DNA of 24,000 nt from the NCBI RefSeq assembly GCF_005049285.1, contig NZ_SOSC01000010.1, forward strand, positions 69,662 to 93,661. Reading direction: 5' to 3'. The notes beneath the pieces are model-generated. The model saw only the letters and a program-made list of their open reading frames with translations. It searched no databases and was not told where the DNA came from. Below, piece by piece: positions 5,106 to 18,316 of this stretch. How positions within the stretch are numbered: the first letter of the stretch is position 1; each line of letters starts with the position of its first letter. The translations under genes were made by a program, and so were the position numbers. The stretch is from Halorientalis salina (GTDB lineage: Archaea; Halobacteriota; Halobacteria; Halobacteriales; Haloarculaceae).

Positions 5106-6962
5106 TCAGACAGGGGCGACCATGTCCATGGCCTCCCGCACCGACTCGCGCTGGCCCAGAATCGTGATCCGGTCACCGAGTTCCAGCGCCATGTCCGGTT
5201 CGGGGACCTCGATGCCGTCGTCGTGGTCGACCAGGGCGATGAGACAGTCCTCGGGGAGTTCGAGGCGGAGTTCCCGGACGGTGTAGTCGGCGAACCGCTC
5301 GGCCGTGAGTTCGACCTCCTGGACGTCGCCGACGCGGTCCAGATCGGTCATCCAGTGGGCCATGGCGGGCCGTTCGATCTGGTTGTCGATGGCCCAGGCG
5401 GTCGCCATGCTCGCGTCGATGGTTCGCACGCCGAGGTCCTCGAAGGCGTCGACGTTGTCGGGGTTGTTCACCCGTGCGATGACGGTCTCGACGTCGAACT
5501 TCGAGTTCGAGAGTTGCGCGATGAGCAGGTTCGCGTCGTCGTTGCCGGTCGCGGCGATGATCGTTTTGGCGTTGGCACCACCGGCCTCACTGAGGACCTC
5601 CGTGTCGGTGCCGTCACCCCAGACGACCGAGTACCCGTCGTTTCGTGTTCGTTCGACCATTGCCTCTTCCGTTTCGATGATGACGACGTTCTCGCCTCGA
5701 TCTTCGAGGCGTTCGGCGAGCGACCGACCCACTCGTCCGCCGCCAACGATGATGACTCTCATTGGTATCACATCCAGGTATTCCGCGATTTTGCGCGCGA
5801 AGCCGCCCTCGAAGGCGACCGTCGCGAAGATGACCAGAAAGACCGTCCCGACGAGCACCTGGGCCTGCTCGTCCAGCCCCTGGGCCTGCATCTCCACGGC
5901 GAACAGCGTCGCGACCGAGGCCGGAATGATGCCCCGCGGGCCGACGAAGCTCATGAACAGTTTCTCGCTGGTCTTGAACCGGTCGCCCCAGGTCGAGACG
6001 AAGACGAGCACCGGCCGGATGATCAGCATGATCACGGCGACGACGGCCAGTCCGGGTACCCCCAGTTGGAGGAGGTCCTCGAACTCCAGCAGCGCCGCCA
6101 GCGCGATGAAGACGATAGAAAGCACCAGCAACGTGATGTCGCCTTTGAACGCCGCGATTTCGTCCTCGTAGGGGAGGTCGGCGTTCCCGAGCAAGAGCCC
6201 GGCCGTCGCGACGGCCGCGACACCGGCCTCCGTCCTGATGGTATCGGCCGCGGCGAAGGCGACGAGCGCGCCCGCGAGCGTGAGCAGCCGTGCGCTCTGT
6301 GGCGCGTTGCCGGGTGAGAGGTCGACGTACCTGATGAGGTAGTAGATCACGGCGGCGACGACGACGCCGACGAGCAGTCCGATACCCAGGCGCGTGGCGA
6401 ACGCCTCGACGAACGACACTTCCGCCTCGTTTCGGAGGACGATGACCTTGAAGACGACGACGGCGATGATCGCCGCACTCACGTCGTTGATGATCCCCTC
6501 GGTCTCCAGGGCGGTCGCCACCCGGTCGCGGACGGGGACGACCTCCAGGATCGGCGTGACGACCGTCGGTCCCGTCGCGACCAGGAGGGCACCGATGAGA
6601 AAGGACATGTCCCAGGGTTGATCGAGCGCGAAGTGGACGACCACTGCAGTCCCGCCCAGTGCGATCGCGGCTCCCACCGTCACCAGCCTGAGCGTGGCCG
6701 CCGGTGCCGCCTTGACGCGATCGATGCGGAGGTGAAAGGCCCCCTCGAAGACGATGATCGCGACCGAGAGACCGACGATCGCGGGCAGCGCTGGCCCGAA
6801 CGACTCCCGCGTGACCAGGCCCAACCCCTCGGGACCGAGGGCGACGCCCGCGGTCAGGAGGAAGATGATACTGGGCACGCGAAAGCGCGCGGCCAACAGC
6901 TGTGCCCCGACGCCGATTCCGATTATCGCTGCAACCAGTGGAATTATCGCACTACTGGCCAC
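5106..6962 (-). CDS. cation:proton antiporter (Na+/H+ exchanger family) fused to a C-terminal RCK module (TrkA-N + TrkA-C)
   Basis: About 400 aa of multi-TM exchanger sequence, then MRVIIVGGGRVGRSLAERLEDRG (Rossmann GxGxxG, TrkA-N) and a TrkA-C-like end (GDRITILGQRESV). The ORF track starts at GTG 7049, but those first 29 aa (MYRGAESGRTDCECLNH...) look non-native. I favour GTG 6962 (VASSAIIPLVAAIIG). Confidence 0.88.
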   Translation of the reverse strand: MASSAIIPLVAAIIGIGVGAQLLAARFRVPSIIFLLTAGVALGPEGLGLVTRESFGPALPAIVGLSVAIIVFEGAFHLRIDRVKAAPAATLRLVTVGAAIALGGTAVVVHFALDQPWDMSFLIGALLVATGPTVVTPILEVVPVRDRVATALETEGIINDVSAAIIAVVVFKVIVLRNEAEVSFVEAFATRLGIGLLVGVVVAAVIYYLIRYVDLSPGNAPQSARLLTLAGALVAFAAADTIRTEAGVAAVATAGLLLGNADLPYEDEIAAFKGDITLLVLSIVFIALAALLEFEDLLQLGVPGLAVVAVIMLIIRPVLVFVSTWGDRFKTSEKLFMSFVGPRGIIPASVATLFAVEMQAQGLDEQAQVLVGTVFLVIFATVAFEGGFARKIAEYLDVIPMRVIIVGGGRVGRSLAERLEDRGENVVIIETEEAMVERTRNDGYSVVWGDGTDTEVLSEAGGANAKTIIAATGNDDANLLIAQLSNSKFDVETVIARVNNPDNVDAFEDLGVRTIDASMATAWAIDNQIERPAMAHWMTDLDRVGDVQEVELTAERFADYTVRELRLELPEDCLIALVDHDDGIEVPEPDMALELGDRITILGQRESVREAMDMVAPV

Positions 6963-7103
6963 ACCCGATCCTCCATACACCGGACCCAATGAACGGCTGT
7001 GATTTAAACACTCACAATCCGTCCTGCCGCTCTCTGCCCCGCGATACACTCGACCAGCGAGGACGGAGCGCGTTCACTATCGACGATGATAATGCAACCC
7101 TGA

Positions 7104-7113
7104 AGTATATACT
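7104..7113 (+). promoter_or_regulatory. TATA-like perfect palindrome AGTATATACT upstream of the soluble transducer gene
   Basis: AT-rich palindrome centred ~22-28 bp upstream of the ATGs at 7131 and 7137. GAGGTGAGG (Shine-Dalgarno-like) lies at 7122-7130. Confidence 0.45.
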
Positions 7114-7130: not shown

Positions 7131-8795
7131 ATGGTAATGAGTAGCATGAGGCGAATAACTCGGTTCGTTCACTCGTCTCGTCTCGCCGCGTTGGTTCGGT
7201 CCGACACCGACGACCACTCGGAGACGGACGCGACGACCACTGGCGAACCGGACACGGGGGGAACCGACAGAGAGCGGACGACTTCGGAGGACGGCTCGGA
7301 CCAGATGGCGCTGGAGACGACCGATGACGAGGGTGCGGGGGAGACGAATTCCACGTCGTCACCCGTCGGGACAGGCAGCGACCACACGCCAGTCGCCTCG
7401 GACGGCGGGACACACACGGTCGACGCGGCAGCCGCGTCGACCACGTCGTCGCTGGAAGCCACAGCCCGCGACTTCCGCGACGCCATGGCGGCCGCGGCGG
7501 ACGGCGACATCAGTCAGCGCCTGGACACGGACCGGGACAACGACGCGATGGCGGAGGCCGCGTCGGCGTTCAACGAGATGATGACGCATTTCACCGACAC
7601 CGTCGGGGAGTTAGAGGAGTTCGCCGAGGACGTCGACGACGCGACCGAGGAGATGAGCGCCGCCACCCGCGAAGTCAAGGAAGCCAGCGAAGAGGTCAGC
7701 GGGTCGATGGACCAGATCTCGAACAACGCCTCGAAGCAGGACGACCACCTCCAGGAGGTCGCCGACGAGATGACGGACCTCTCGGCGACCGTCGAGGAGA
7801 TCGCCTCCTCGGCCTCGGAGGTCGCCAGTATCTCCAGGGACGCCGCGGAGTTCGGGCAGGAAGGCCGCGACGCCGCCGAGAAGGCCGTCGATCGGATGGA
7901 CGAGATCGAAACGACGGCCGACGACACCATCGAGCAGGTCGAACACCTCGAAGAGCACATCTCCGAGATCAACGAGGTCGTCGAAGTGATCGACGAGATC
8001 GCCGATCAGACCTCGATTCTGGCACTGAACGCCTCGATCGAGGCGGCGCGAGCGGGCGAGGCCGGCGAGGGGTTCGCCGTCGTCGCCGACGAGGTCAAGC
8101 AGTTGGCCGAGGAGGCCAGCCAGGCGACCGAGGATATCAGCGAGATGATCACGGACGTCCAGGACGAGACGACGGCGACGGTCACGGAGATCCGCGAGAT
8201 GGGAGAGCACGTCTCGGAGGGGACGGACACCGTCGAGGAGGCGCTCGAAGCGCTCGACGCTATCGCGGACCGCGTCGAGGACGCCAACGACGGCGTCCAG
8301 TCGATCAACGAGGCCACCAACGAACAGGCGGGGAGTACCGAGGAGGTCGTCGCACTCGTCGAGGAGGTCGCCGACCTCAGCGAGCGGACGGCCGACGAAA
8401 CGCGCGAGGTGTCGGCCTCGGCAGAGGAACAGACCGCCGCACTAACCGAAGTGGCGGCCAACATGGACGGGATCGCCGACCAGGCGACTACCCTCACCAC
8501 GCTGCTCGACGACTTCGAGCGACGCGACGGGGACGGCGGCGACGACGACGATCTCGCCTGGGACGATGCGATGGTTCACGACGGTGACGACGAGGAGGAC
8601 GCCGCGGAAGAGACAGCAGCAGACAGCGACGAGGACGACGACCTCGCCTGGGACGACGCGATGGTTCACGACGGCGACGACGGCGGCGCTGGCGACGAGG
8701 ACGGGACGGGCGGAGAAACGACGGATGCGGACAGCGGCTCCGACGAGGAAGAAGAGATCTCCTGGGACGACGCGAAAGTCCACGACGGGAGTTGA
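7131..8795 (+). CDS. soluble (cytoplasmic) methyl-accepting chemotaxis transducer (Htr-type) with repeat-bearing acidic C-terminal tail
   Basis: Canonical MCP signalling hairpin [40 protein letters not shown] and a HAMP-like segment GDISQRLDTDRDNDAMAEAASAFNEMM. I see no hydrophobic TM segment. The first ~110 aa are Thr/Asp/Gly/Ser-rich low complexity. Start ambiguous: GTG 7125, ATG 7131/7137/7146 or ATG 7305. Confidence 0.9.
   Translation: MVMSSMRRITRFVHSSRLAALVRSDTDDHSETDATTTGEPDTGGTDRERTTSEDGSDQMALETTDDEGAGETNSTSSPVGTGSDHTPVASDGGTHTVDAAAASTTSSLEATARDFRDAMAAAADGDISQRLDTDRDNDAMAEAASAFNEMMTHFTDTVGELEEFAEDVDDATEEMSAATREVKEASEEVSGSMDQISNNASKQDDHLQEVADEMTDLSATVEEIASSASEVASISRDAAEFGQEGRDAAEKAVDRMDEIETTADDTIEQVEHLEEHISEINEVVEVIDEIADQTSILALNASIEAARAGEAGEGFAVVADEVKQLAEEASQATEDISEMITDVQDETTATVTEIREMGEHVSEGTDTVEEALEALDAIADRVEDANDGVQSINEATNEQAGSTEEVVALVEEVADLSERTADETREVSASAEEQTAALTEVAANMDGIADQATTLTTLLDDFERRDGDGGDDDDLAWDDAMVHDGDDEEDAAEETAADSDEDDDLAWDDAMVHDGDDGGAGDEDGTGGETTDADSGSDEEEEISWDDAKVHDGS
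8553..8789 (+). repeat. three copies of an 11-aa motif in the transducer tail: LAWDDAMVHDG (8553-8585), LAWDDAMVHDG (8643-8675), ISWDDAKVHDG (8757-8789)
   Basis: Read directly from the translation and DNA. Copies 1 and 2 are identical in protein and nearly identical in DNA. Each copy follows an Asp/Glu run. The third copy ends one residue before the C-terminus. Confidence 0.9.
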
Positions 8796-8850
8796 TCGAC
8801 GGACGGTCGTGGACAGACGTGAGCTATCAGGGATGAGAATCGCGGAGTAA

Positions 8851-8863
8851 TACTAATAATTAG
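8851..8863 (+). promoter_or_regulatory. AT-rich TATA-like element (tactaataattag) ~26 bp upstream of the first paralog ATG
   Basis: This is the only AT-rich block in the 8796-8882 spacer. The spacing fits a leaderless or near-leaderless haloarchaeal transcript. Confidence 0.45.
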
Positions 8864-8882
8864 TTGGGAGACAGACACACAC

Positions 8883-9281
8883 ATGCCGTACAAGTCCGGA
8901 GAGAGCTGGGAAGTGGACATCGACCAGGGAACGAACAGGCTGTACCTCGAACTCGACGGATACCTCGAGAGCGACGCGGCCGGTGCGGCGGCGGACGCGA
9001 CGATAGAAGGGGCAAAGAAGCTGGATGCGGGGTTCGACATGATCAACGACCTCTCGAACTTCCAGCCCTCCGACGAGGAGGCGATGAAACACATCGAGCG
9101 CGGGAAGAAAGGCATCGCCAAACACGACGTGGCCGCCGTCGTGCGCGTGACGTCCGAGTCGACGACGGGACAGATGCAGTTCGACCGCGCCGGCGAGGAC
9201 GAGGAGAGCTATCAGCTCGCGATGGCCGACTCCCAGGAGAAAGCCGAGAAGCTACTGGACAAGCGACGCGAACAAGCATGA
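8883..9281 (+). CDS. small acidic protein, paralog 1 of 4 (STAS/SpoIIAA-like layout, uncharacterised family)
   Basis: 132 aa. It shares the pattern W-x-V-x-I/T-D...NRLYL-x-L-x-G...GFD-x-IND-x-S-x-F-x-P...ERGK...RV-x-SESTTGQMQFDRAGE...YQLA...AEKLLD with the next two genes. Confidence 0.85.
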   Translation: MPYKSGESWEVDIDQGTNRLYLELDGYLESDAAGAAADATIEGAKKLDAGFDMINDLSNFQPSDEEAMKHIERGKKGIAKHDVAAVVRVTSESTTGQMQFDRAGEDEESYQLAMADSQEKAEKLLDKRREQA

Positions 9282-9349
9282 GAGAGACCCACTATCAACG
9301 GTGAAAAACGGCGAGGAACGCTTTTGACCGGTACCGCGATACTCGCCCT

Positions 9350-9727
9350 ATGGGCGACTGGAGCGTCGAAATCGACGAGGAGCGGAGTCGAATATACCTC
9401 ACGCTGTCGGGCTACCTGGAGCTATCGGAACACGAGAAGGTGGCCGACGCCGTGACAGAGGCCGCGATCGACATGGACGGCGGGTTCGACCTCGTCAACG
9501 ACATGTCGAGTTTCGAGCCGGCCAGCGAGGACGCGATGGCGGAGATCAAACGCGGGAAGCGCGGCCTCGCCGAGAACGGTATGGAGGCCGCCGTCCGCGT
9601 CGTCTCCGAATCGACGACCGGCCAGATGCAGTTCGACCGCGCCGGCGAGGGCGTCGAGAACTACCAGCTCGCAAAGGCGAACTCGATCGACGAGGCCGAG
9701 AAACTGCTGGACTCGCGGGGCGACTAG
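9350..9727 (+). CDS. small acidic protein, paralog 2 of 4
   Basis: 125 aa. By hand count, 79 of 125 ungapped positions are identical to paralog 3. It contains the identical 15-mer SESTTGQMQFDRAGE. Confidence 0.85.
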   Translation: MGDWSVEIDEERSRIYLTLSGYLELSEHEKVADAVTEAAIDMDGGFDLVNDMSSFEPASEDAMAEIKRGKRGLAENGMEAAVRVVSESTTGQMQFDRAGEGVENYQLAKANSIDEAEKLLDSRGD

Positions 9728-9802
9728 GGAGACCCAGTCGTCGGACAGTCGGCCCGGGACGGGCTGAAACACGTGAGCGATTCGATCACACGGAGAACAC
9801 AC

Positions 9803-10186
9803 ATGGGCACTTGGAACGTCGACACGGACGAGGAGAAGAACAGACTGTACCTATCCCTGGACGGGCACTTCGAGGTCGAGGAAGTGGCGGAAGCGGCGGA
9901 TGCGGTTATCGAGGCCGCGGAGCGACTCGACCCGGGGTTCGACGAGATCAACGACATGTCCGGGTTCGAGCCGGCCGACCAGGAAGCGATGGACCACATC
10001 GAACGGGGCAAACGCGGGATCACCGAAAACGGCGTCGCGGCCGTCTGTCGCGTCGTCTCCGAGTCGACGACGGGCCAGATGCAGTTCGACCGCGCCGGCG
10101 AAGGCGAGGAGGACTACCAGTTGGCGAAAACCGACTCCATCGAGAAAGCCGAGAAACTGCTCGACGCGCGCCGCGAGGACAACTGA
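9803..10186 (+). CDS. small acidic protein, paralog 3 of 4
   Basis: Internal ATG of ORF 9773..10186. MGTWNVDTDEEKNRLYL aligns with the N-termini MGDWSVEIDEE and MGQWSVDVDEE of paralogs 2 and 4. GGAG lies 8-11 nt upstream. Confidence 0.85.
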   Translation: MGTWNVDTDEEKNRLYLSLDGHFEVEEVAEAADAVIEAAERLDPGFDEINDMSGFEPADQEAMDHIERGKRGITENGVAAVCRVVSESTTGQMQFDRAGEGEEDYQLAKTDSIEKAEKLLDARREDN

Positions 10187-10263
10187 CCCCAGCGCGGACC
10201 CCGAATCGATCGATACCCAACAGTCTGCGAACATTCATTACGGAGTGCTTACATCACAGGGGT

Positions 10264-10635
10264 ATGGGACAGTGGAGTGTCGACGTCGACGAGGAGCGCA
10301 ACCGGTTGTACGCGGAGCTCTCGGGCTTTTTCGTGGAAGAAGAGGCGACGGAGTCGACCGAGGAGTTCATCGAGGCGGCCGAACGACTGGAGACGGGATT
10401 CGACATGATCCAGGACCTCGCGGAACTCCAGATCGGAGATCCGGGCGCGGCGGAGCAACTCGAACGCGGCAAGCGCCGGCTCGCGGAGAACGGACTGGCC
10501 ACCGTCGTCCGGATCCCGCCGACCGCCACGACGAGCGAACTGCAGTACGAGGAGTCTGGCGAGGACGCCGAGAACTACGAGATCAGGACCGCGTCGTCGG
10601 TCACGGAAGCCGAGACGATCCTCGACAACCAGTAA
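10264..10635 (+). CDS. small acidic protein, paralog 4 of 4 (most divergent)
   Basis: In frame within ORF 9811..10635. MGQWSVDVDEERNRLYAELSGFF...GFDMIQDLAELQ...ERGKRRLAENG keeps the family pattern. The conserved SESTTGQMQFDRAGE block is replaced by PTATTSELQYEESGE. Confidence 0.8.
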   Translation: MGQWSVDVDEERNRLYAELSGFFVEEEATESTEEFIEAAERLETGFDMIQDLAELQIGDPGAAEQLERGKRRLAENGLATVVRIPPTATTSELQYEESGEDAENYEIRTASSVTEAETILDNQ

Positions 10636-10666
10636 GACGGCGGACGGGGAACCGTCAGTCGCCGTC
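10636..10666. terminator. interrupted 12-bp hairpin at the convergent junction of paralog 4 and the MBL hydrolase gene
   Basis: GACGGCG (10636-10642) pairs with CGCCGTC (10660-10666). An inner GACGG (10643-10647) pairs with CCGTC (10652-10656) around a GGAA loop. It overlaps the stop of the minus-strand gene. No T-tract is present, so the function is uncertain. Confidence 0.3.
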
Positions 10667-11578
10667 GGCCCCGTCGCGCTCGTCGAGGTAGGTCAGGACA
10701 CCGCGGACGTTCATTCGTTCTTCGCCGCGAGCCTTGCGCTCGCCCCAGATGCCGATCATATCGGTCCGCTCGGCGAAGTGCTCGATGACAGCGTCGTCGT
10801 CGTCGAGTTCCTCGCGTTTCGTCGCGACGCGATCGACCCACTCGGCGATGGCGTCCGCGTACTCCTGGAGGCGGTCGTCGGTCCGCGCCGAGCCGAAGTG
10901 CCCGTAACAGAGTACCTCGGGGTCCAGTTCCCGGATCGTGTCTATGTCAGCGAGCACCTGCTCCAAGTCGAAGTTCGACGGGGGCGAGGTGTGCTGGATG
11001 AACGCCTCGCTGGGGACGTAGATGCCCGCCGCGTCGGCGACGAACACGATCGCGTCGTCGGGTTCTTCGAAGACGACCTGATGGGGTGCGTGTCCCGGCG
11101 CGTGGTGGACGCGCAGTTCGCGGTCCCCGAGGTCGATGACGTCACCGTCGGTGAGTTCGCGGATGCGGTCCTCGGGGATCGGTTCCGGGTCGGTGTAGAA
11201 CGCCCACTGGTCGCCGACGGCCGCTTTCGTCCCCTCGATCAGTCGCGAGGGGTCGACGAGGTGGCGCGCGCCGATCTCGTGGATGGCGACGGTCGCGTTC
11301 GGACAGGCCGCCGCGAGGTGGCCCGCACCGCCCGCGTGGTCGAGGTGGACGTGCGTGAGCGCGATGACATCGAGATCCGCCGGCGCGATGCCGACCTCGT
11401 CCATCGCATCGAGGATCCGCTCGTACTCGGTCCCGATACCCGAATCGATCAGTGCGGGCCGCTCCCCGTCGACGATGTACACCGAGCCGTACTCGGGGGC
11501 GTCGTACATCCCGGTGTCGACGTAGTAGACGTCCTGACAGTCGCCCTCGGTCACCTCGAACACGTCGCCGATTGCCAT
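10655..11578 (-). CDS. MBL-fold metallo-hydrolase
   Basis: THVHLDHAGG (HxHxDH motif) plus a downstream HAPGHAPH. Start taken at MAIGDVFEV, an internal ATG of ORF 10655..11914. The upstream 112 aa are Arg-rich and overlap grpE in antisense. Confidence 0.9.
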   Translation of the reverse strand: MAIGDVFEVTEGDCQDVYYVDTGMYDAPEYGSVYIVDGERPALIDSGIGTEYERILDAMDEVGIAPADLDVIALTHVHLDHAGGAGHLAAACPNATVAIHEIGARHLVDPSRLIEGTKAAVGDQWAFYTDPEPIPEDRIRELTDGDVIDLGDRELRVHHAPGHAPHQVVFEEPDDAIVFVADAAGIYVPSEAFIQHTSPPSNFDLEQVLADIDTIRELDPEVLCYGHFGSARTDDRLQEYADAIAEWVDRVATKREELDDDDAVIEHFAERTDMIGIWGERKARGEERMNVRGVLTYLDERDGADGD

Positions 11579-12255: not shown

Positions 12256-13257
12256 TCAACCGCCAGCCAGATACCCGGCCAGTCCGCCGATGGCGACCGG
12301 GTAGACAAGCCCCATTATCAGAACTGCGCTGCCAAGGTCCGGCTGAATCGTGACGACGCCACCGGTCCCGCTGTACGAGAAGACGGTCATCGCGCCGAGG
12401 ACCGTGAGCGCGAGGTAGCCGACGGCGATCGTCGCGCCGGCCCGGGCGCTGTCGAACCGGGAGACGGGTTCGTCCATCGACGCTCGCGAGGCGAGTATCA
12501 TCCCGAACAGCAAGAGGAGCACTGCCGGGACGACGTAGTAGGCGATTTTCGGCACTATCGGGTCCAGCGTGGCGCTGTAGGCCTCTTCGACGAAGTTTAT
12601 CGACTCGTCACCGGCCGAGTCCGTAGTCTGGACTCCGTGTGCCGAGTAGAAGAACCAGCCGAACAGCGCGACCAGCGCATCGACCGAGTCCTCCACCGGA
12701 AGCACGCCCAGCCCGTCGCTGTCCTCCACTTCCAGGAGGACGAAGGCGGAGATGACGACGAAACTGATGAGATACGAGAACAGCCCGTAAATGACGCCGC
12801 CGACGATGGGCAGGTCCGAGAGCAGACTCGTGGCCGTTCCGGTCGTCTGCTGGTTGCCGCCCTGACGCGTGCCGCCACCGCGCTGGGCTCCCTGGCCCTG
12901 TCGCTGGTGACCGCCGGGCTGACTGCCCTGCGTCGGTTGCTGGTAATTGCCGGACTGACCACCCTGGCCCGGTTGCTGCTGACCGCCCTGCGTCGGTTGT
13001 TGCCGGCCGCCCTGCGTCGGTTGCTGTGGACCGCCACCGGATTGCTGGGGTTGGCCCCCGCCGACACTGACGGGTTGCCCGGACTCCTGGGTCCCCGATC
13101 CGGGCTGTTGGGGCGGTGTCTGGCCGGTCCCGTGTTCGTCGCCCTGGGTCGGTTGCGTGCCCTGTCCACCCTGCTCGTCCTGTGACAGCGTCACGCCACA
13201 CTCGGGACACTGCCGGTTCTGTGCGGACACCTCGGTCCCGCACGACGGACAGTACAT
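12256..13257 (-). CDS. zinc-ribbon membrane protein with a long Gln/Gly/Pro-rich low-complexity domain
   Basis: N-terminal MYCPSCGTEVSAQNRQCPECG (CxxC-x11-CxxC zinc ribbon). A Q/G/P/T-rich region of ~115 aa follows, with reiterated QQPTQGG units, then a C-terminal domain with several hydrophobic TM segments. Confidence 0.85.
   Translation of the reverse strand: MYCPSCGTEVSAQNRQCPECGVTLSQDEQGGQGTQPTQGDEHGTGQTPPQQPGSGTQESGQPVSVGGGQPQQSGGGPQQPTQGGRQQPTQGGQQQPGQGGQSGNYQQPTQGSQPGGHQRQGQGAQRGGGTRQGGNQQTTGTATSLLSDLPIVGGVIYGLFSYLISFVVISAFVLLEVEDSDGLGVLPVEDSVDALVALFGWFFYSAHGVQTTDSAGDESINFVEEAYSATLDPIVPKIAYYVVPAVLLLLFGMILASRASMDEPVSRFDSARAGATIAVGYLALTVLGAMTVFSYSGTGGVVTIQPDLGSAVLIMGLVYPVAIGGLAGYLAGG
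12838..13182 (-). repeat. Q/G/P-rich low-complexity coding region with imperfect reiterated units (QQPTQGG; DNA unit gccctgcgtcggttg on the + strand occurs 3 times)
   Basis: Read directly from the translation (aa 26-140 of the zinc-ribbon protein) and from the DNA. Confidence 0.85.
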
Positions 13258-14991: not shown

Positions 14992-17208
14992 TCAATCGTC
15001 GCCTCCGGAGGGTACCGCCTGTATCTTCTCGTCGCCCGCGTCGATCTCGAAGGCGGCGAGCATCTCCTGGAGTTCTCGGGTCCGCTCGGCCAGGCTCGCC
15101 GCCGAGTCCGACACCTGGCTGATCGAGCTGCTGGCCTCCTCGGAGGCGGCGGCGACGGTCTCGGCCTGCTGGGTGGTCTCCTCGGAGACGCTGGCGATCT
15201 CGTCGACCATCCGGACGATCTGCTGGGCAGAGTCGGCCTGTTCGTCGGTGGCGTCGTTGATGCTCTTGAGGCCGCCGTCGACGCTGTCGACCCCGTCGAC
15301 GATCGCTTCGAGCGAGTCGGTCAGGTCCTCGACGGTCTCGGTCCCCTCGGTGATGCGGGACTCGGCTTCGCGGATGTCCTCGGCGCTGGCCGTCGCCCGG
15401 TCCTGGACCGACGAGATGGTCGTCTCGATCTCGTCGACCGCCCGCTGGGTCTCCTCGGAGAGTTCCTTGACCTCCTCGGCGACGACCGCGAACCCGGAGC
15501 CGGACTCGCCGGCGCGGGCGGCCTCGATGTTGGCGTTCAGCGCCAGAATCGAGGTCTGCTCGGCGATCTCGTCGATCAGACGAGTCACCTCGCTGATCTC
15601 GTCGATCTCGTCGGTGAGCCGCTCGATCGACTCGACTACGTTGCCCGTCTGTGCCTCGATGGACTGCATCTCCTCGATGGTCGCCTCGGCCTGCTCGCGG
15701 CCCTCGGCACCGAGTTCGGCCACCCTGTCGGACTGGCTGGCGACCTCGTCGGTCGTCGAGGCCACCTCCTCGATGGTCGCCGAGAGGTCGTTGACCTCGT
15801 CACCCGTCGCCTGCAGGTCCTCGGTCTGTTCCTGTGCGCCCGTCGAGATTCCCTGGATGGAGCGGCTGACCTCCTCGCTTGCCTCCTTGACCTCGCCGGC
15901 GCTGTCCTCGACGTCGTGACTCGACGCGGCGACGTCCTCGGCGAACTGCTGGACGTCGGCGACGGTCCGTTCGAGGTCGGCGATCATCTCGTTGAACGAG
16001 TCGGCGATCGACTGCATCGCATCACTGTCGGTTTCGGGGTCGAGCCGCCGGGTGAGGTCGCCGTCCGCACAGGCCGCCATCGTCTCGCTGTAGCGTTCGG
16101 CCTCGGCTTCGAGCTGCTCGTTGAACCGCTGGGTCTCGAGTTCGCGCTGTTCGGCCTCCTCGCGTGCGCGTTCGGCCTCGGCTCTCGCGTCGTCGGCTTC
16201 GGCCAGGGACTCCTTGAGCGAGTCGCGCATCGCGCCGAACTCCCCGTAGAGCATCCCGACCTCGTCGGTGCGGTCGGTCTCCAGTTCGACGTCCAGGTTC
16301 CCCTCGCCGATCTCGCTGGCCCGATCCGCGAGCTGGCGCAGCGCCAGTGCGAGGTTGCCACCGATGGTGATCCCGAACACGCCGAGGTTCAGGGCGATGA
16401 CGTACAGGAGCGCGACGAGCCCCGCCGTCGCGGTGTTCCGGTCAGTGTACACCACGTCGCTCGGCGCGTACGTCACGACCTGCCAGTTCGTGTCGGCCAC
16501 GCCCGCCCCCGTCGTCGCGAACTCGGACCCGTCGACGGTCGTCGTCTCGATGCCCTCGTCGCCGGCCAGGTCCGCCGCGCCCGTGGCGTTCCACGCCGTC
16601 GACCCGGATGCGGCCACTGGGGTTCCGTCGACCACGAGCGCCGTCGCGTAGCCGTCGTCCGCGATCCGGGACTGCAGGGACGCCGTCGAGGCGTCCACGA
16701 CGATCGCGCGGTCCGCGTCGACCGCCGCCACGAACGGCACGACCGTCGCGTCACCGCTCACGGCCGCCCGCGGCGTGCCCGCGACCGCCTCGCCGTCGCC
16801 GGCGTCACCGACCGCGACCGTCTCGCCCGTCGCGTCGCTCGCCGAACTCGACAGTATCTCGCCGCTCGTCCGGTCGACGTAGTGGACCGCGGCGACGCGA
16901 TCGGCCCCTGCCGCCCGGTCGAGTCGATCCGCGATCCGGTCGGTATCGCCGCTCTCGACGGCGCTCGACGTCGCGACGCCGGTGGCGAGTGCCTCGTTCG
17001 AGTCGGCCCACAGCGCCGTGACGTTGGCACCGTCGCTCGCGTGGTCGGTGAAGGCCGCGTCCGCCGACTGCCCGAGTTCGCCGGCAACGTTACCGTAAAA
17101 AAAGGCGGTCGAGACCAGCGTGATCAGGAAGACCACGCTGAGCGTGACCACCATCTTCAGGCTGTAGCTCGACCTGACCCGATCCAGTACGTTCGTATCG
17201 AAGTTCAT
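14992..17208 (-). CDS. membrane-bound methyl-accepting transducer (HtrII-like: TM1, ~220-aa extracellular Cache-like domain, TM2, HAMP, MCP signalling domain)
   Basis: TM1 [23 protein letters not shown] and TM2 [33 protein letters not shown] segments ([26 protein letters not shown], and [26 protein letters not shown]) and the MCP core [40 protein letters not shown]. Confidence 0.93.
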
Positions 17209-17335
17209 GTGTCCTCACTTCCGGGCCGCATACCCCGTGTGAATCGTACCCGAACGATGCCAGTCGTCTCGGTAAAACCTGACGGGCGGATTATTAGATC
17301 CGATAACAAACCACTTCGAGGTTGATTACGCATCG

Positions 17336-18091
17336 TCAATCACCGGCCGGGGTGTCGGCGCTCGGTGGGTGCGTTCCGTCGTCGCGGAAGTAATCGAGCG
17401 GCGTCGGGTGCTCGGCCGCGAGTTCCCGGATCGCGGTCGGCGCTCGCAGCAGGATTCCGCCGAACCCGATGTGCCCGAGCAGGTCGAGGTAGCCGCCGAC
17501 GTAGACGCCGGTGAACGTCCCGAGGAGCCCGAGGCCCTGGCGGGAGGTCAGTCCGACGACGAGGTACATCAGCATCAACAGCGCCATGAGGTTCCGGAGT
17601 TTCCCGAAGAGCAGCCGCCGGGCACCGGTCACGGCCTGGGCGGACTGGGTGTAAGGGAGGAAAAGCAGGTAGAGAGCGCTGGCGATCGATGCGAGAACCA
17701 TCAGTTTGCCGCCGCTGTCGAAGGGCACTGGAGCGAGCCAGTTTATCAGCGTCCCGGTCACGAACCCGACGAGCGCGATCATTCCAGCGAGCGTGAGCCG
17801 GCGACTGGCGTCCGCGAGTACGCCGATCGACGCGACCACGAGCGGATACGTGAACAGGTACATCAAGAACCGCGAGACGGGAACCGGTTCGCCGCCGGGA
17901 CTGTGAAGGACGAGCAGCTGGTTGGCCATCGCGAAGTAACCGATCATCAACATCCCGGATGCGAACGGTGCGAGCAGCAGGTACTGGCGCGTCGTCCCGG
18001 AGAACTGGCGGAGTCTGGCGACGAAGCCGAGTGTCGCGACGAGCGCCACGGTCGAAACCAGCAGATAGAACGTGCTCTCGGGAATGATCAT
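17336..18091 (-). CDS. bacteriorhodopsin-family (type-1 opsin fold) 7TM protein lacking the retinal-binding lysine (His at the Schiff-base position)
   Basis: Seven hydrophobic segments that align helix by helix with BR and sensory rhodopsin II. Helix C is [14 protein letters not shown] (BR: ARYADWLFTTPLLL). Helix F is [18 protein letters not shown] (BR: VLRNVTVVLWSAYPVVWL). Helix G is [17 protein letters not shown] (NpSRII: YLDLVTKVGFGFIAL; BR: LDVSAKVGFGLILLRS). Start taken at ATG 18091 ([11 protein letters not shown]). The ORF-track start at 18184 is a TTG that adds a basic 31-aa extension. Confidence 0.85.
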
Positions 18092-18190: not shown

Positions 18191-18215
18191 TCGATTAAAC
18201 TACAGTATAAAAGTA
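18191..18215. promoter_or_regulatory. AT-rich block (tcgattaaactacagtataaaagta) in the 225-bp divergent spacer between the opsin-like gene and serS
   Basis: It contains TATA-like cores readable on both strands (GTATAAAAG on +, CTTTTATAC and GTTTAATCG on -). It lies ~100 bp from each start codon, which implies 5' leaders of about 70-90 nt if it is used. Confidence 0.35.
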
Positions 18216-18316
18216 CGCTCCCTCTTCTCATACATGATATTGCCACCCACGGACGGGACGGCGCCAACGGGCCAGAGCGACACGGTTTTGCCACGCCACG
18301 GCAAACCGACTGCCAA

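Follow-up and report, generated by a model that had tools for sequence, protein, structure and literature searches.

Predicted CsmR-type promoter boxes precede a soluble transducer gene and neighbouring STAS-like small-protein genes in Halorientalis salina

Introduction

Single-domain proteins of the STAS fold, such as CheS, SpoIIAA, RsbS, SiaC and MlaB, work through the binding of partner proteins, and helix alpha2 is the canonical interaction face of this fold. In bacterial chemoreceptors, a C-terminal pentapeptide of the NWETF type is the docking tether for CheR and CheB. The locus described here is from Halorientalis salina, and the DNA analysed, referred to as the window, is a stretch of 24,000 nucleotides (contig NZ_SOSC01000010.1, positions 69,662 to 93,661 of the forward strand), in which the gene of a soluble methyl-accepting chemotaxis protein (MCP) is followed by four small genes, sp1 to sp4, predicted to encode STAS-like proteins. 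An initial annotation of the window had proposed that these small proteins deliver or modulate signals by docking on repeated motifs in the tail of the transducer or on its N-terminal region.

The nearest functional precedent for the small proteins, as likened by fold and gene context, may be CheS of Sinorhizobium meliloti and Agrobacterium, a STAS-only protein of the alpha-proteobacterial chemotaxis cluster that binds CheA (PMC12654446). Like CheS, the proteins of the window are small, have a single domain of predicted STAS fold and are genetically associated with chemotaxis genes. Unlike cheS, which lies within the che operon beside cheA and cheY, their genes lie beside a receptor gene, and a Pfam scan of the 25 largest open reading frames (ORFs) detected no che genes in the window. 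Loci of the window type also differ in having 2-5 paralogs, many with a promoter of their own, in an archaeal host.

The second system with which the locus is compared is the CsmR regulon of Haloferax volcanii (PMC13286277, PLoS Genet, June 2026). CsmR is a regulator of the Lrp/AsnC type that acts on genes for the archaellum, chemotaxis and cell shape. The motif obtained by chromatin immunoprecipitation and sequencing (ChIP-seq), TATCA(N4)TGATA, was present in 50 of 65 peaks and immediately precedes the TATA box; the che and arl operons are targets, one peak is located just upstream of Htr15, and the transducer MpcT is up by 2.8 log2 in a csmR deletion (PMC13286277). The csmR gene co-occurs with archaellin genes throughout the Halobacteria (PMC13286277).

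Results

The new element at this locus is a CsmR-type box predicted in front of the genes of the soluble MCP, sp1, sp2, a transmembrane transducer (Htr) and a rhodopsin, and in front of the STAS-like genes of related loci. Alignment of the 60 nt upstream of all small genes and of the MCP orthologs revealed a palindrome, TATCR-N4-YGAWA, with an A/T-rich box about 10-13 nt further on and the ATG 26-27 nt past this A/T-rich (TATA) element. The pattern TATCRNNNNYGAWAA, scanned with one mismatch allowed across the window (63-72% G+C), gave 7 matches at 5 sites against 0.46 expected, and none of 100 shuffles reached 7; no such site was found in the window ahead of the genes encoding the metallo-beta-lactamase (MBL)-fold hydrolase, GrpE, Hsp70, SerRS, peroxiredoxin and CNNM. 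A 34-bp position weight matrix (PWM) was built only from 50 ChIP-seq sites of H. volcanii (PMC13286277, table S10). Its five best matches in the window (17.5-22.9 bits) belonged, in descending order, to sp2, rhodopsin, sp1, Htr and the soluble MCP, all facing the gene, while the maxima in shuffled sequence had a mean of 11.3 and a standard deviation of 2.4. As in the Haloferax promoters, the semi-palindrome stands immediately upstream of TATA and before motility or taxis genes; unlike there, the genus is another one, and STAS-like and rhodopsin genes are not among the Haloferax targets checked. CsmR-type motility promoters are predicted for these five genes and not for sp3 or sp4.

In related loci, the MCP-type element was present ahead of every orthologous MCP gene, and the sp1-type box recurred with the same spacing in L001, L002, L014, L023 and L031. 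The Htr box recurred in L001 and L031, with 23.3 and 20.3 bits, respectively, and the rhodopsin box in L001, L014 and L031. Across 214 kb of related loci, the strong PWM matches were located nearly all before soluble MCP, STAS-like, Htr and rhodopsin genes, most of them with an ATG 26-27 nt downstream. Most paralogs in related genomes carry the same box-type promoter, and the sp3-type singletons of Halovenus have boxes of 25.3-25.8 bits. No such box was detected before the more distant haloarchaeal and bacterial STAS-like genes, which serves as a specificity control, indicating that the PWM does not fire on arbitrary promoters. As dS is 0.5-1.6 in all but the closest orthologs, retention of the box at a fixed spacing points to selection. 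MCP, sp1 and sp2 each have a predicted promoter of their own, and the array is, on this prediction, not simply one operon. Leaderless transcripts are expected in haloarchaea, and the ATG of sp1, 26 nt after its TATA-like element, suggests one. The palindrome of the MCP gene sits in a divergent intergenic region, and its reverse reading (7059-7092, minus strand) faces the antiporter/TrkA gene; at orthologous reverse sites (L001 8174-8207, L002 8036-8069) and here the score toward the antiporter was 12-20 bits, so that this gene might be co-regulated. A scan of the window for sigma-70 promoters and intrinsic terminators was uninformative, the host being an archaeon.

The MCP gene and the array are adjacent in all 12 Halorientalis-type loci examined, which comprise 7 loci of Halorientalis genomes together with contigs of metagenome-assembled genomes and metagenomes. 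The order of the block is Na+/H+ antiporter with TrkA domains (minus strand), soluble MCP (plus), 2-5 STAS-like genes (plus) and MBL-fold hydrolase (minus). Relatives above ~40% identity were found in Halorientalis, Halovenus and unclassified Haloarculaceae, and six further matches of ~120 aa, including one from a bacterial contig, had 32-36% identity. The proposed conservation of the gene neighbourhood was borne out in these 12 loci and failed outside this shallow clade, where Halovenus singletons, an MCP relic and a tail-bearing MCP alone occur (see Discussion). The linkage of MCP and array survives only within one shallow clade.

The ORFs agree with the earlier description of four co-directional small genes, the ATG of sp1 being 88 nt past the last base of the MCP stop codon, and of three close paralogs plus a divergent one, since sp1-sp3 are 55-67% identical to each other and sp4 is 40-45% identical to the other three. 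The sp2 protein has the same sequence (100% identity) as a hypothetical protein from Halorientalis salina, and the orthogroup of sp4 includes L002_3, L023_2 and L031_2. The paralogs form four or five subfamilies that predate the species, and their gene order is conserved. Compared to their orthologs, the small genes have dN/dS values of 0.07-0.49 (dS 0.2-1.6, or 0.5-1.6 outside the closest pair), which argues that they are real genes under purifying selection. In L005 (12000-12314), the third paralog is truncated at its N-terminus.

Searches with sp1-sp4 against Pfam, NCBIfam and PDB sequences returned no match, and the family profile found nothing meaningful among the PDB sequences. An AlphaFold2 (AF2) model of sp2, based on a 65-sequence alignment (pLDDT 87.1, pTM 0.81), displayed the element order b1-b2-a1-b3-a2-b4-a3-b5-a4, which is the order of the STAS superfamily, with ~110-125 residues. 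Comparison of this model with the PDB by Foldseek gave 17 matches at E <= 1e-3, all of them STAS proteins. The top matches were SpoIIAA (1tid_B; E 6e-5, TM 0.66), RsbV, RsbS and TM1442, and the others included the DUF3478/'SpoIIAA-like' structures 2q3l (best TM, 0.71) and 2ook, SiaC, MlaB and the STAS domains of SLC26 transporters. In an exhaustive HMMER search, the profile of the family recovered 1119 cluster representatives (50% identity) at E <= 1e-3 and 518 at E <= 1e-10, mostly bacterial, about 120 aa long and not halophilic in appearance. The two-domain member P0113 (family profile E 3e-40) matched PF11964 in the same domain with 41.5 bits, above the cut-off of 25 bits. The STAS-type label of the initial annotation is upheld by the predicted fold of sp2, its Foldseek matches and the match of P0113 to PF11964, and the model places the small proteins as STAS-like at the level of fold and superfamily.

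In a sample of 74 family members, PF11964 was matched by 3 and STAS_2 by 2, and the annotation of the members is 'hypothetical protein' throughout. On profile evidence, the small proteins belong to an uncurated family whose nearest Pfam entry is PF11964 (SpoIIAA-like, formerly DUF3478; 2q3l, 2ook). With this entry they share the predicted fold and the single domain of ~120 aa, but sp1-sp4 and 71 of the 74 sampled members miss it, and the family has a signature of its own (NRLY, GFD-x-I-x-D, VRV, MQF-x-R and AE-x-LLD). SpoIIAA, RsbV and RsbS are the top matches of the model (E 6e-5 to 1e-3, TM 0.6-0.7), but identity to them is 8-20%, their usual phospho-Ser position is mostly Asp here, and no cognate kinase or phosphatase gene was found among the 25 largest ORFs of the window. 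Unlike RsbR of the stressosome, which joins an N-terminal sensor to a STAS domain, sp1-sp4 all have a single domain (123-132 aa), and no RsbT-like gene was found among the same ORFs. Among the bacterial relatives, P0113, P0128, P0181, P0206 and P0264 are tandem two-domain proteins. The PilZ domain at the C-terminus of P0206 (E 1.2e-4) is a hint of signalling linked to c-di-GMP (cyclic di-guanosine monophosphate) in part of the family.

Two positions of helix alpha2 distinguish the Halorientalis/Halovenus clade. At the N-cap, where the equivalent of the SpoIIAA phospho-Ser was assigned by model topology and not by structural superposition, Ser or Thr occurs in 62% of the broad family; the clade has Asp in 31 of 41 members (76%) and Ser in 5 of 41. 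In the window, Ser is found only in sp2 (Ser59, ~9524-9526), and Asp in sp1, sp3 and sp4. Since Asp, like Ser and Thr, is an ordinary residue at helix N-caps, a phosphomimic change from Ser/Thr to Asp is not claimed; the shift could reflect a plain N-cap preference or the loss of a phospho-site. A G-K-(R/K) motif stands on alpha2 in 40 of 41 clade members, where the broad family has A-Q-x. Since the clade proteins carry a net charge of -13 to -22, this basic patch could receive an acidic ligand, for example a tail repeat of the transducer.

The transducer is an MCP of the soluble class, with a signalling domain and with neither a transmembrane (TM) segment nor a recognisable sensor, in agreement with the initial annotation. 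Its highest 19-residue Kyte-Doolittle mean is 0.87, and searches of Pfam and NCBIfam for sensor domains (PAS, Cache, 4HB, haem and others) gave, besides MCPsignal and a weak HAMP match, only chance matches of the coiled-coil type. The low-complexity N-terminal region described earlier is also present, as T, D, G, S and E make up 70% of residues 22-108, with a net charge of -17. This acidic linker is probably disordered; in an alignment of 10 orthologs it is the least conserved part of the protein, being variable in length and having a column identity of 0.21-0.37, compared to 0.6-0.99 for the core and 0.99 across a 20-residue stretch at the hairpin tip. The HAMP-like segment stands as a segment well conserved in the same alignment, although its Pfam match lies below the curated cut-off (Table 1). 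Between the 9 Halorientalis-type loci compared, the MCP orthologs are 53-65% identical. A short basic segment is found at the start of every ortholog, followed by ~90-130 residues that cannot be aligned; it may serve as a tethered peptide or as a helix for membrane association. Its variants include MSLASRVSALLRS, MNFRKRVSQALSS and MTFRRRIAQLLHAS, with orthologs in L001, L002, L005-L009, L012 and L014.

The three tail motifs reported for the C-terminus are present (Table 1), within a final stretch of 92 residues in which Asp accounts for 33%. Their consensus is D-D-L-x-W-D-D-A-x-V-H-D-G, and the copies in the window read D-D-L-A-W-D-D-A-M-V-H-D-G or the variant E-E-I-S-W-D-D-A-K-V-H-D-G. The core W-D-D-A-x-V-H does not vary across 18 copies from 8 genomes, and the last copy ends 0-2 residues from the C-terminus in every ortholog; the repeats are strongly conserved, the intervening linkers are not. 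The number of repeats is 3 in eight genomes and 2 in four others, and the numbers of paralogs in the same 12 loci are 4, 2, 3, 2 (+1 decayed), 5, 3, 5, 5, 3, 2, 2 and 2. The match between three motifs and three plus one paralogs, regarded as suggestive in the initial annotation, is a coincidence, since the motifs vary from 2 to 3 and the paralogs from 2 to 5 without any 1:1 relation. A protein-database search with the profile of the tail alignment (A4) had 3 MCP fragments among the matches listed, which were dominated by acidic low-complexity candidates. A scan of metagenome DNA for W-D-D-A-x-V-H-D-G gave 12 loci, only 2 of them true tail-MCPs, and a search of the plasmid collection with the tail gave no match.

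By analogy, the repeats resemble tethers of the NWETF pentapeptide type: in both cases an acidic motif with a Trp lies at the very C-terminus of an MCP and is preceded by a flexible linker that is not conserved. Unlike that tether, they occur in 2-3 copies. The last five residues are VHDGS, with similar ends in the orthologs, and the terminus ...WDDAKVHDGS does not fit the pattern xZxxZ (criterion of PMC7390727); none of 2730 Halobacteriales receptors (0%) carried a canonical pentapeptide (PMC7390727). The repeated W-acidic motif is a candidate for the archaeal equivalent of that bacterial tether.

The coordinates of all features are given in Table 1. The MBL-fold gene is convergent with the small-protein array and has no CsmR box. 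The Htr gene lies immediately downstream of the rhodopsin gene, and the same pair occurs in L001, L014 and L031; the two look like a sensory rhodopsin/transducer pair. At 12256-13257 (minus strand), a 333-aa protein is encoded that has a zinc ribbon at its N-terminus, a long stretch of low complexity rich in Q and G, and several hydrophobic segments at its C-terminal end; its gene is flanked by grpE and an Hsp70 gene, the latter of only 544 aa.

Table 1. Features of the locus in the window (positions counted from the first nucleotide of the window).
Feature	Position	Strand	Details
Na+/H+ antiporter/TrkA gene	5106-7049	-	divergent from soluble MCP gene
CsmR-type box + TATA CTATCGACGATGATAATGCAACCCTGAAGTATAT, soluble MCP (predicted)	7077-7110 (site 7078-7092)	+	exact TATCRNNNNYGAWAA match; 17.5 bits
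Soluble methyl-accepting transducer	7131-8795	+	554 aa from ATG 7131; alternative GTG start 7125 (556 aa)
Short basic N-terminal segment MVMSSMRRITRFVHSSRLAALVR	7131-7199	+	conserved motif type MSLASRVSALLRS, all orthologs
Acidic T/D/S/G-rich low-complexity linker	7194-7454	+	composition; low ortholog conservation
HAMP-like segment	7470-7586	+	Pfam HAMP E 0.018, 15.8 bits (curated cut-off 25 bits)
MCP signalling domain	7869-8378	+	PF00015 MCPsignal E 5.8e-46, 156.9 bits; residues 249-418 of 556-aa reading
Tail repeat 1 DDLAWDDAMVHDG	8547-8585	+	sequence repeat
Tail repeat 2 DDLAWDDAMVHDG	8637-8675	+	sequence repeat
Tail repeat 3 EEISWDDAKVHDG	8751-8789	+	stops one residue short of C-terminus
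Tail-repeat peptide			DDLSWDDAQVHDG
CsmR-type box + A/T-rich TATA-like element, sp1 (predicted)	8824-8857 (site 8825-8839)	+	18.5 bits
sp1, STAS/SpoIIAA-like single-domain	8883-9281	+	132 aa; family alignment; dN/dS 0.08-0.24
CsmR-type box + TATA CTATCAACGGTGAAAAACGGCGAGGAACGCTTTT, sp2 (predicted)	9292-9325 (site 9293-9307)	+	22.9 bits; exact consensus
sp2, STAS/SpoIIAA-like	9350-9727	+	125 aa; the modelled paralog
sp3, STAS/SpoIIAA-like	9803-10186	+	127 aa from ATG
sp4, divergent STAS/SpoIIAA-like paralog	10264-10635	+	123 aa
MBL-fold hydrolase gene	10655-11554	-	Pfam Lactamase_B E 6.8e-31; conserved downstream neighbour
Transmembrane Htr gene	14992-17208	-	738 aa; HAMP + MCPsignal; large extracellular domain
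CsmR-type box, Htr (predicted)	17273-17306 (site 17291-17306)	-	18.3 bits
Rhodopsin gene (bacteriorhodopsin family)	17336-18091	-	Pfam Bac_rhodopsin E 5e-15
CsmR-type box, rhodopsin (predicted)	18207-18240 (site 18225-18239)	-	21.4 bits

Discussion

The reading favoured here, held tentatively and a little short of even confidence, is that a clade-specific expansion of STAS-fold proteins was recruited into the motility/taxis regulon, in which they are probably protein-binding accessories that modulate taxis and do not enter a fixed 1:1 complex with the tail. Because the CsmR-type box is shared with the receptor genes, the small proteins of this clade would be expressed with the regulon and made together with the taxis receptors. 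Less firmly, and on the model of other single-domain STAS proteins, their action might depend on binding to a partner protein, the likely surface being the alpha2 face with its clade-specific G-K-(R/K); they would then modulate signalling in taxis, with no fixed 1:1 complex between them and the three tail repeats. An obligate complex of this kind is disfavoured by the existence of decoupled loci and by the lack of numerical correspondence. An association of the small proteins with taxis gains support from the predicted co-regulation; docking on the tail and the match in numbers gain none. By analogy with CheS, the proteins may be described as STAS-fold, chemotaxis-linked accessories in an archaeal, multi-paralog and individually promoted form, drawn from an uncurated family.

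Several observations weigh against this reading. Both the co-regulation of the small genes and the CsmR sites in Halorientalis are predictions made from sequence, and the CsmR regulon of H. volcanii includes cell-shape and unrelated genes, so that membership does not specify taxis. Upstream of sp3 there is no full CsmR box, only a half-site (CTGAAAC), and sp4 has no box, only a weak TATA-like element. The che genes are missing from the ORFs scanned in the window, as are genes of an RsbW/SpoIIAB-type kinase, RsbT and a PP2C phosphatase. In two Halovenus genomes, an sp3-type singleton has MOSC and DUF192 genes as neighbours, and no MCP gene is present up to 10 kb away. In one metagenomic lineage (L023 1822-2093, L019 48-308), the MCP is reduced to a relic of 86 aa, still with two tail motifs, beside two intact paralogs with an overall dN/dS of 0.20-0.27. 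In another lineage (L017, L018), a three-motif tail-MCP is followed, without paralogs, by a convergent alpha/beta-hydrolase gene. Finally, on L039 (397-2123) and L040, two tandem STAS-like genes are followed, after a gap of 59 nt, by a co-directional MBL gene that is 43% identical to the MBL gene of the window (E 6e-68), and neither an MCP gene called on the L039 contig nor a CsmR box was found there; judged from this arrangement, the adjacency of STAS-like and MBL genes looks older than that of STAS-like and MCP genes.

Some further details of these loci were recorded. The tail-MCP of L018 is followed (~290-400) by what is left of a decayed STAS-like C-terminus, 'YPVAITESVERVEKLPD*RREEQ', and the MCP of L017 has an in-frame stop at ~310, where a sequencing error is possible. 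In Halovenus halobia (L004 12378-13670), the STAS-like singleton has, at a distance of 2 kb, a gene for a HEAT/HEAT_PBS-repeat protein; in Halobacterium, interactions of Che proteins with HEAT_PBS proteins have been reported.

It is somewhat unlikely that the genes are neighbours by descent only, the small proteins having a job unrelated to taxis and their adjacency to the MCP being synteny inherited in one clade. They might then work with the MBL-fold hydrolase, or bind a ligand or protein in a task tied to growth phase or cell shape. The MCP-linked loci do all belong to one shallow clade, and the distant haloarchaeal pair with its 43%-identical MBL gene has no MCP called on the contig. No MCP was found beside the distant haloarchaeal members at L036, L037/38 and L039/40 or on the annotated Salinibaculum plasmid, nor in any of the four bacterial contexts read (L011, L032, L034, L035) from a large and mostly bacterial family (1119 clusters at 50% identity). 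In the plasmid collection, one distant homolog each was found in Salinibaculum and in Haloarcula rara (record unannotated), both at 35% identity and lacking a CsmR box. That the CsmR regulon also spans cell-shape genes would suit this alternative, but it does not explain why the box is kept at a fixed spacing although synonymous sites are saturated, or why it marks three receptor genes in the window and no housekeeping genes. A partnership with the hydrolase is further opposed by the window MBL gene, which is convergent and lacks the box, and MBL as a recurrent partner of the bacterial members was rejected, the MBL genes there being unrelated to that of the window.

The docking model, in which the small proteins are input or adaptor subunits of this very MCP and bind its tail motifs or disordered N-terminus, is unlikely. 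It would account for the lack of a sensor in the MCP, the adjacent, co-directional genes in 12 loci, the promoter box common to MCP and paralogs, and the strong conservation of tail repeats between linkers that are not conserved, and the basic G-K-(R/K) of alpha2 could take an acidic peptide. Against these points, the number of motifs (2-3) is unrelated to that of paralogs (2-5), and each side occurs without the other: two paralogs remain intact (dN/dS 0.20-0.27) beside the MCP relic, a three-motif tail-MCP persists where the paralogs are gone, and the boxed Halovenus singleton has no MCP in its vicinity. A bolder version of this idea, in which the paralogs are interchangeable, separately transcribed STAS-fold input or adaptor subunits under CsmR control that plug into the sensor-less receptor or the receptor array, is more doubtful still; the tethered peptides used for this would be the W-acidic repeats at the C-terminus and the helix at the N-terminus. 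If true, one transducer would read several cytoplasmic signals, and the small proteins would form a new class of archaeal taxis components.

Classical phosphorylation-driven partner switching of the SpoIIAA/RsbV or stressosome type, with phosphorylation at the N-terminus of alpha2, is very improbable and probably not what these proteins do: the closest solved folds are indeed SpoIIAA, RsbV and RsbS and the broad family favours Ser/Thr at the N-cap, but the clade has mostly Asp there and the window Ser only in sp2, that column alone says little given that all three residues are ordinary N-caps, the 25 largest ORFs of the window encode no RsbW/SpoIIAB-type kinase, RsbT or PP2C, and, to our knowledge, archaea lack sigma factors.

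How input reaches cytoplasmic chemoreceptors that lack a sensor domain is an open question, and the accessory proteins of archaeal taxis are poorly catalogued. The locus provides a concrete set of candidates, consisting of four small STAS-fold proteins predicted to be expressed with taxis receptors. Should the small proteins prove unrelated to taxis, the locus would represent a clean lineage-specific expansion of an uncurated STAS family of more than 1000 clusters. The predicted CsmR box is extended to a further family of haloarchaea, in which it stands before receptor and rhodopsin genes; this suggests that the box may serve to predict motility regulons and to draw uncharacterised genes into them.

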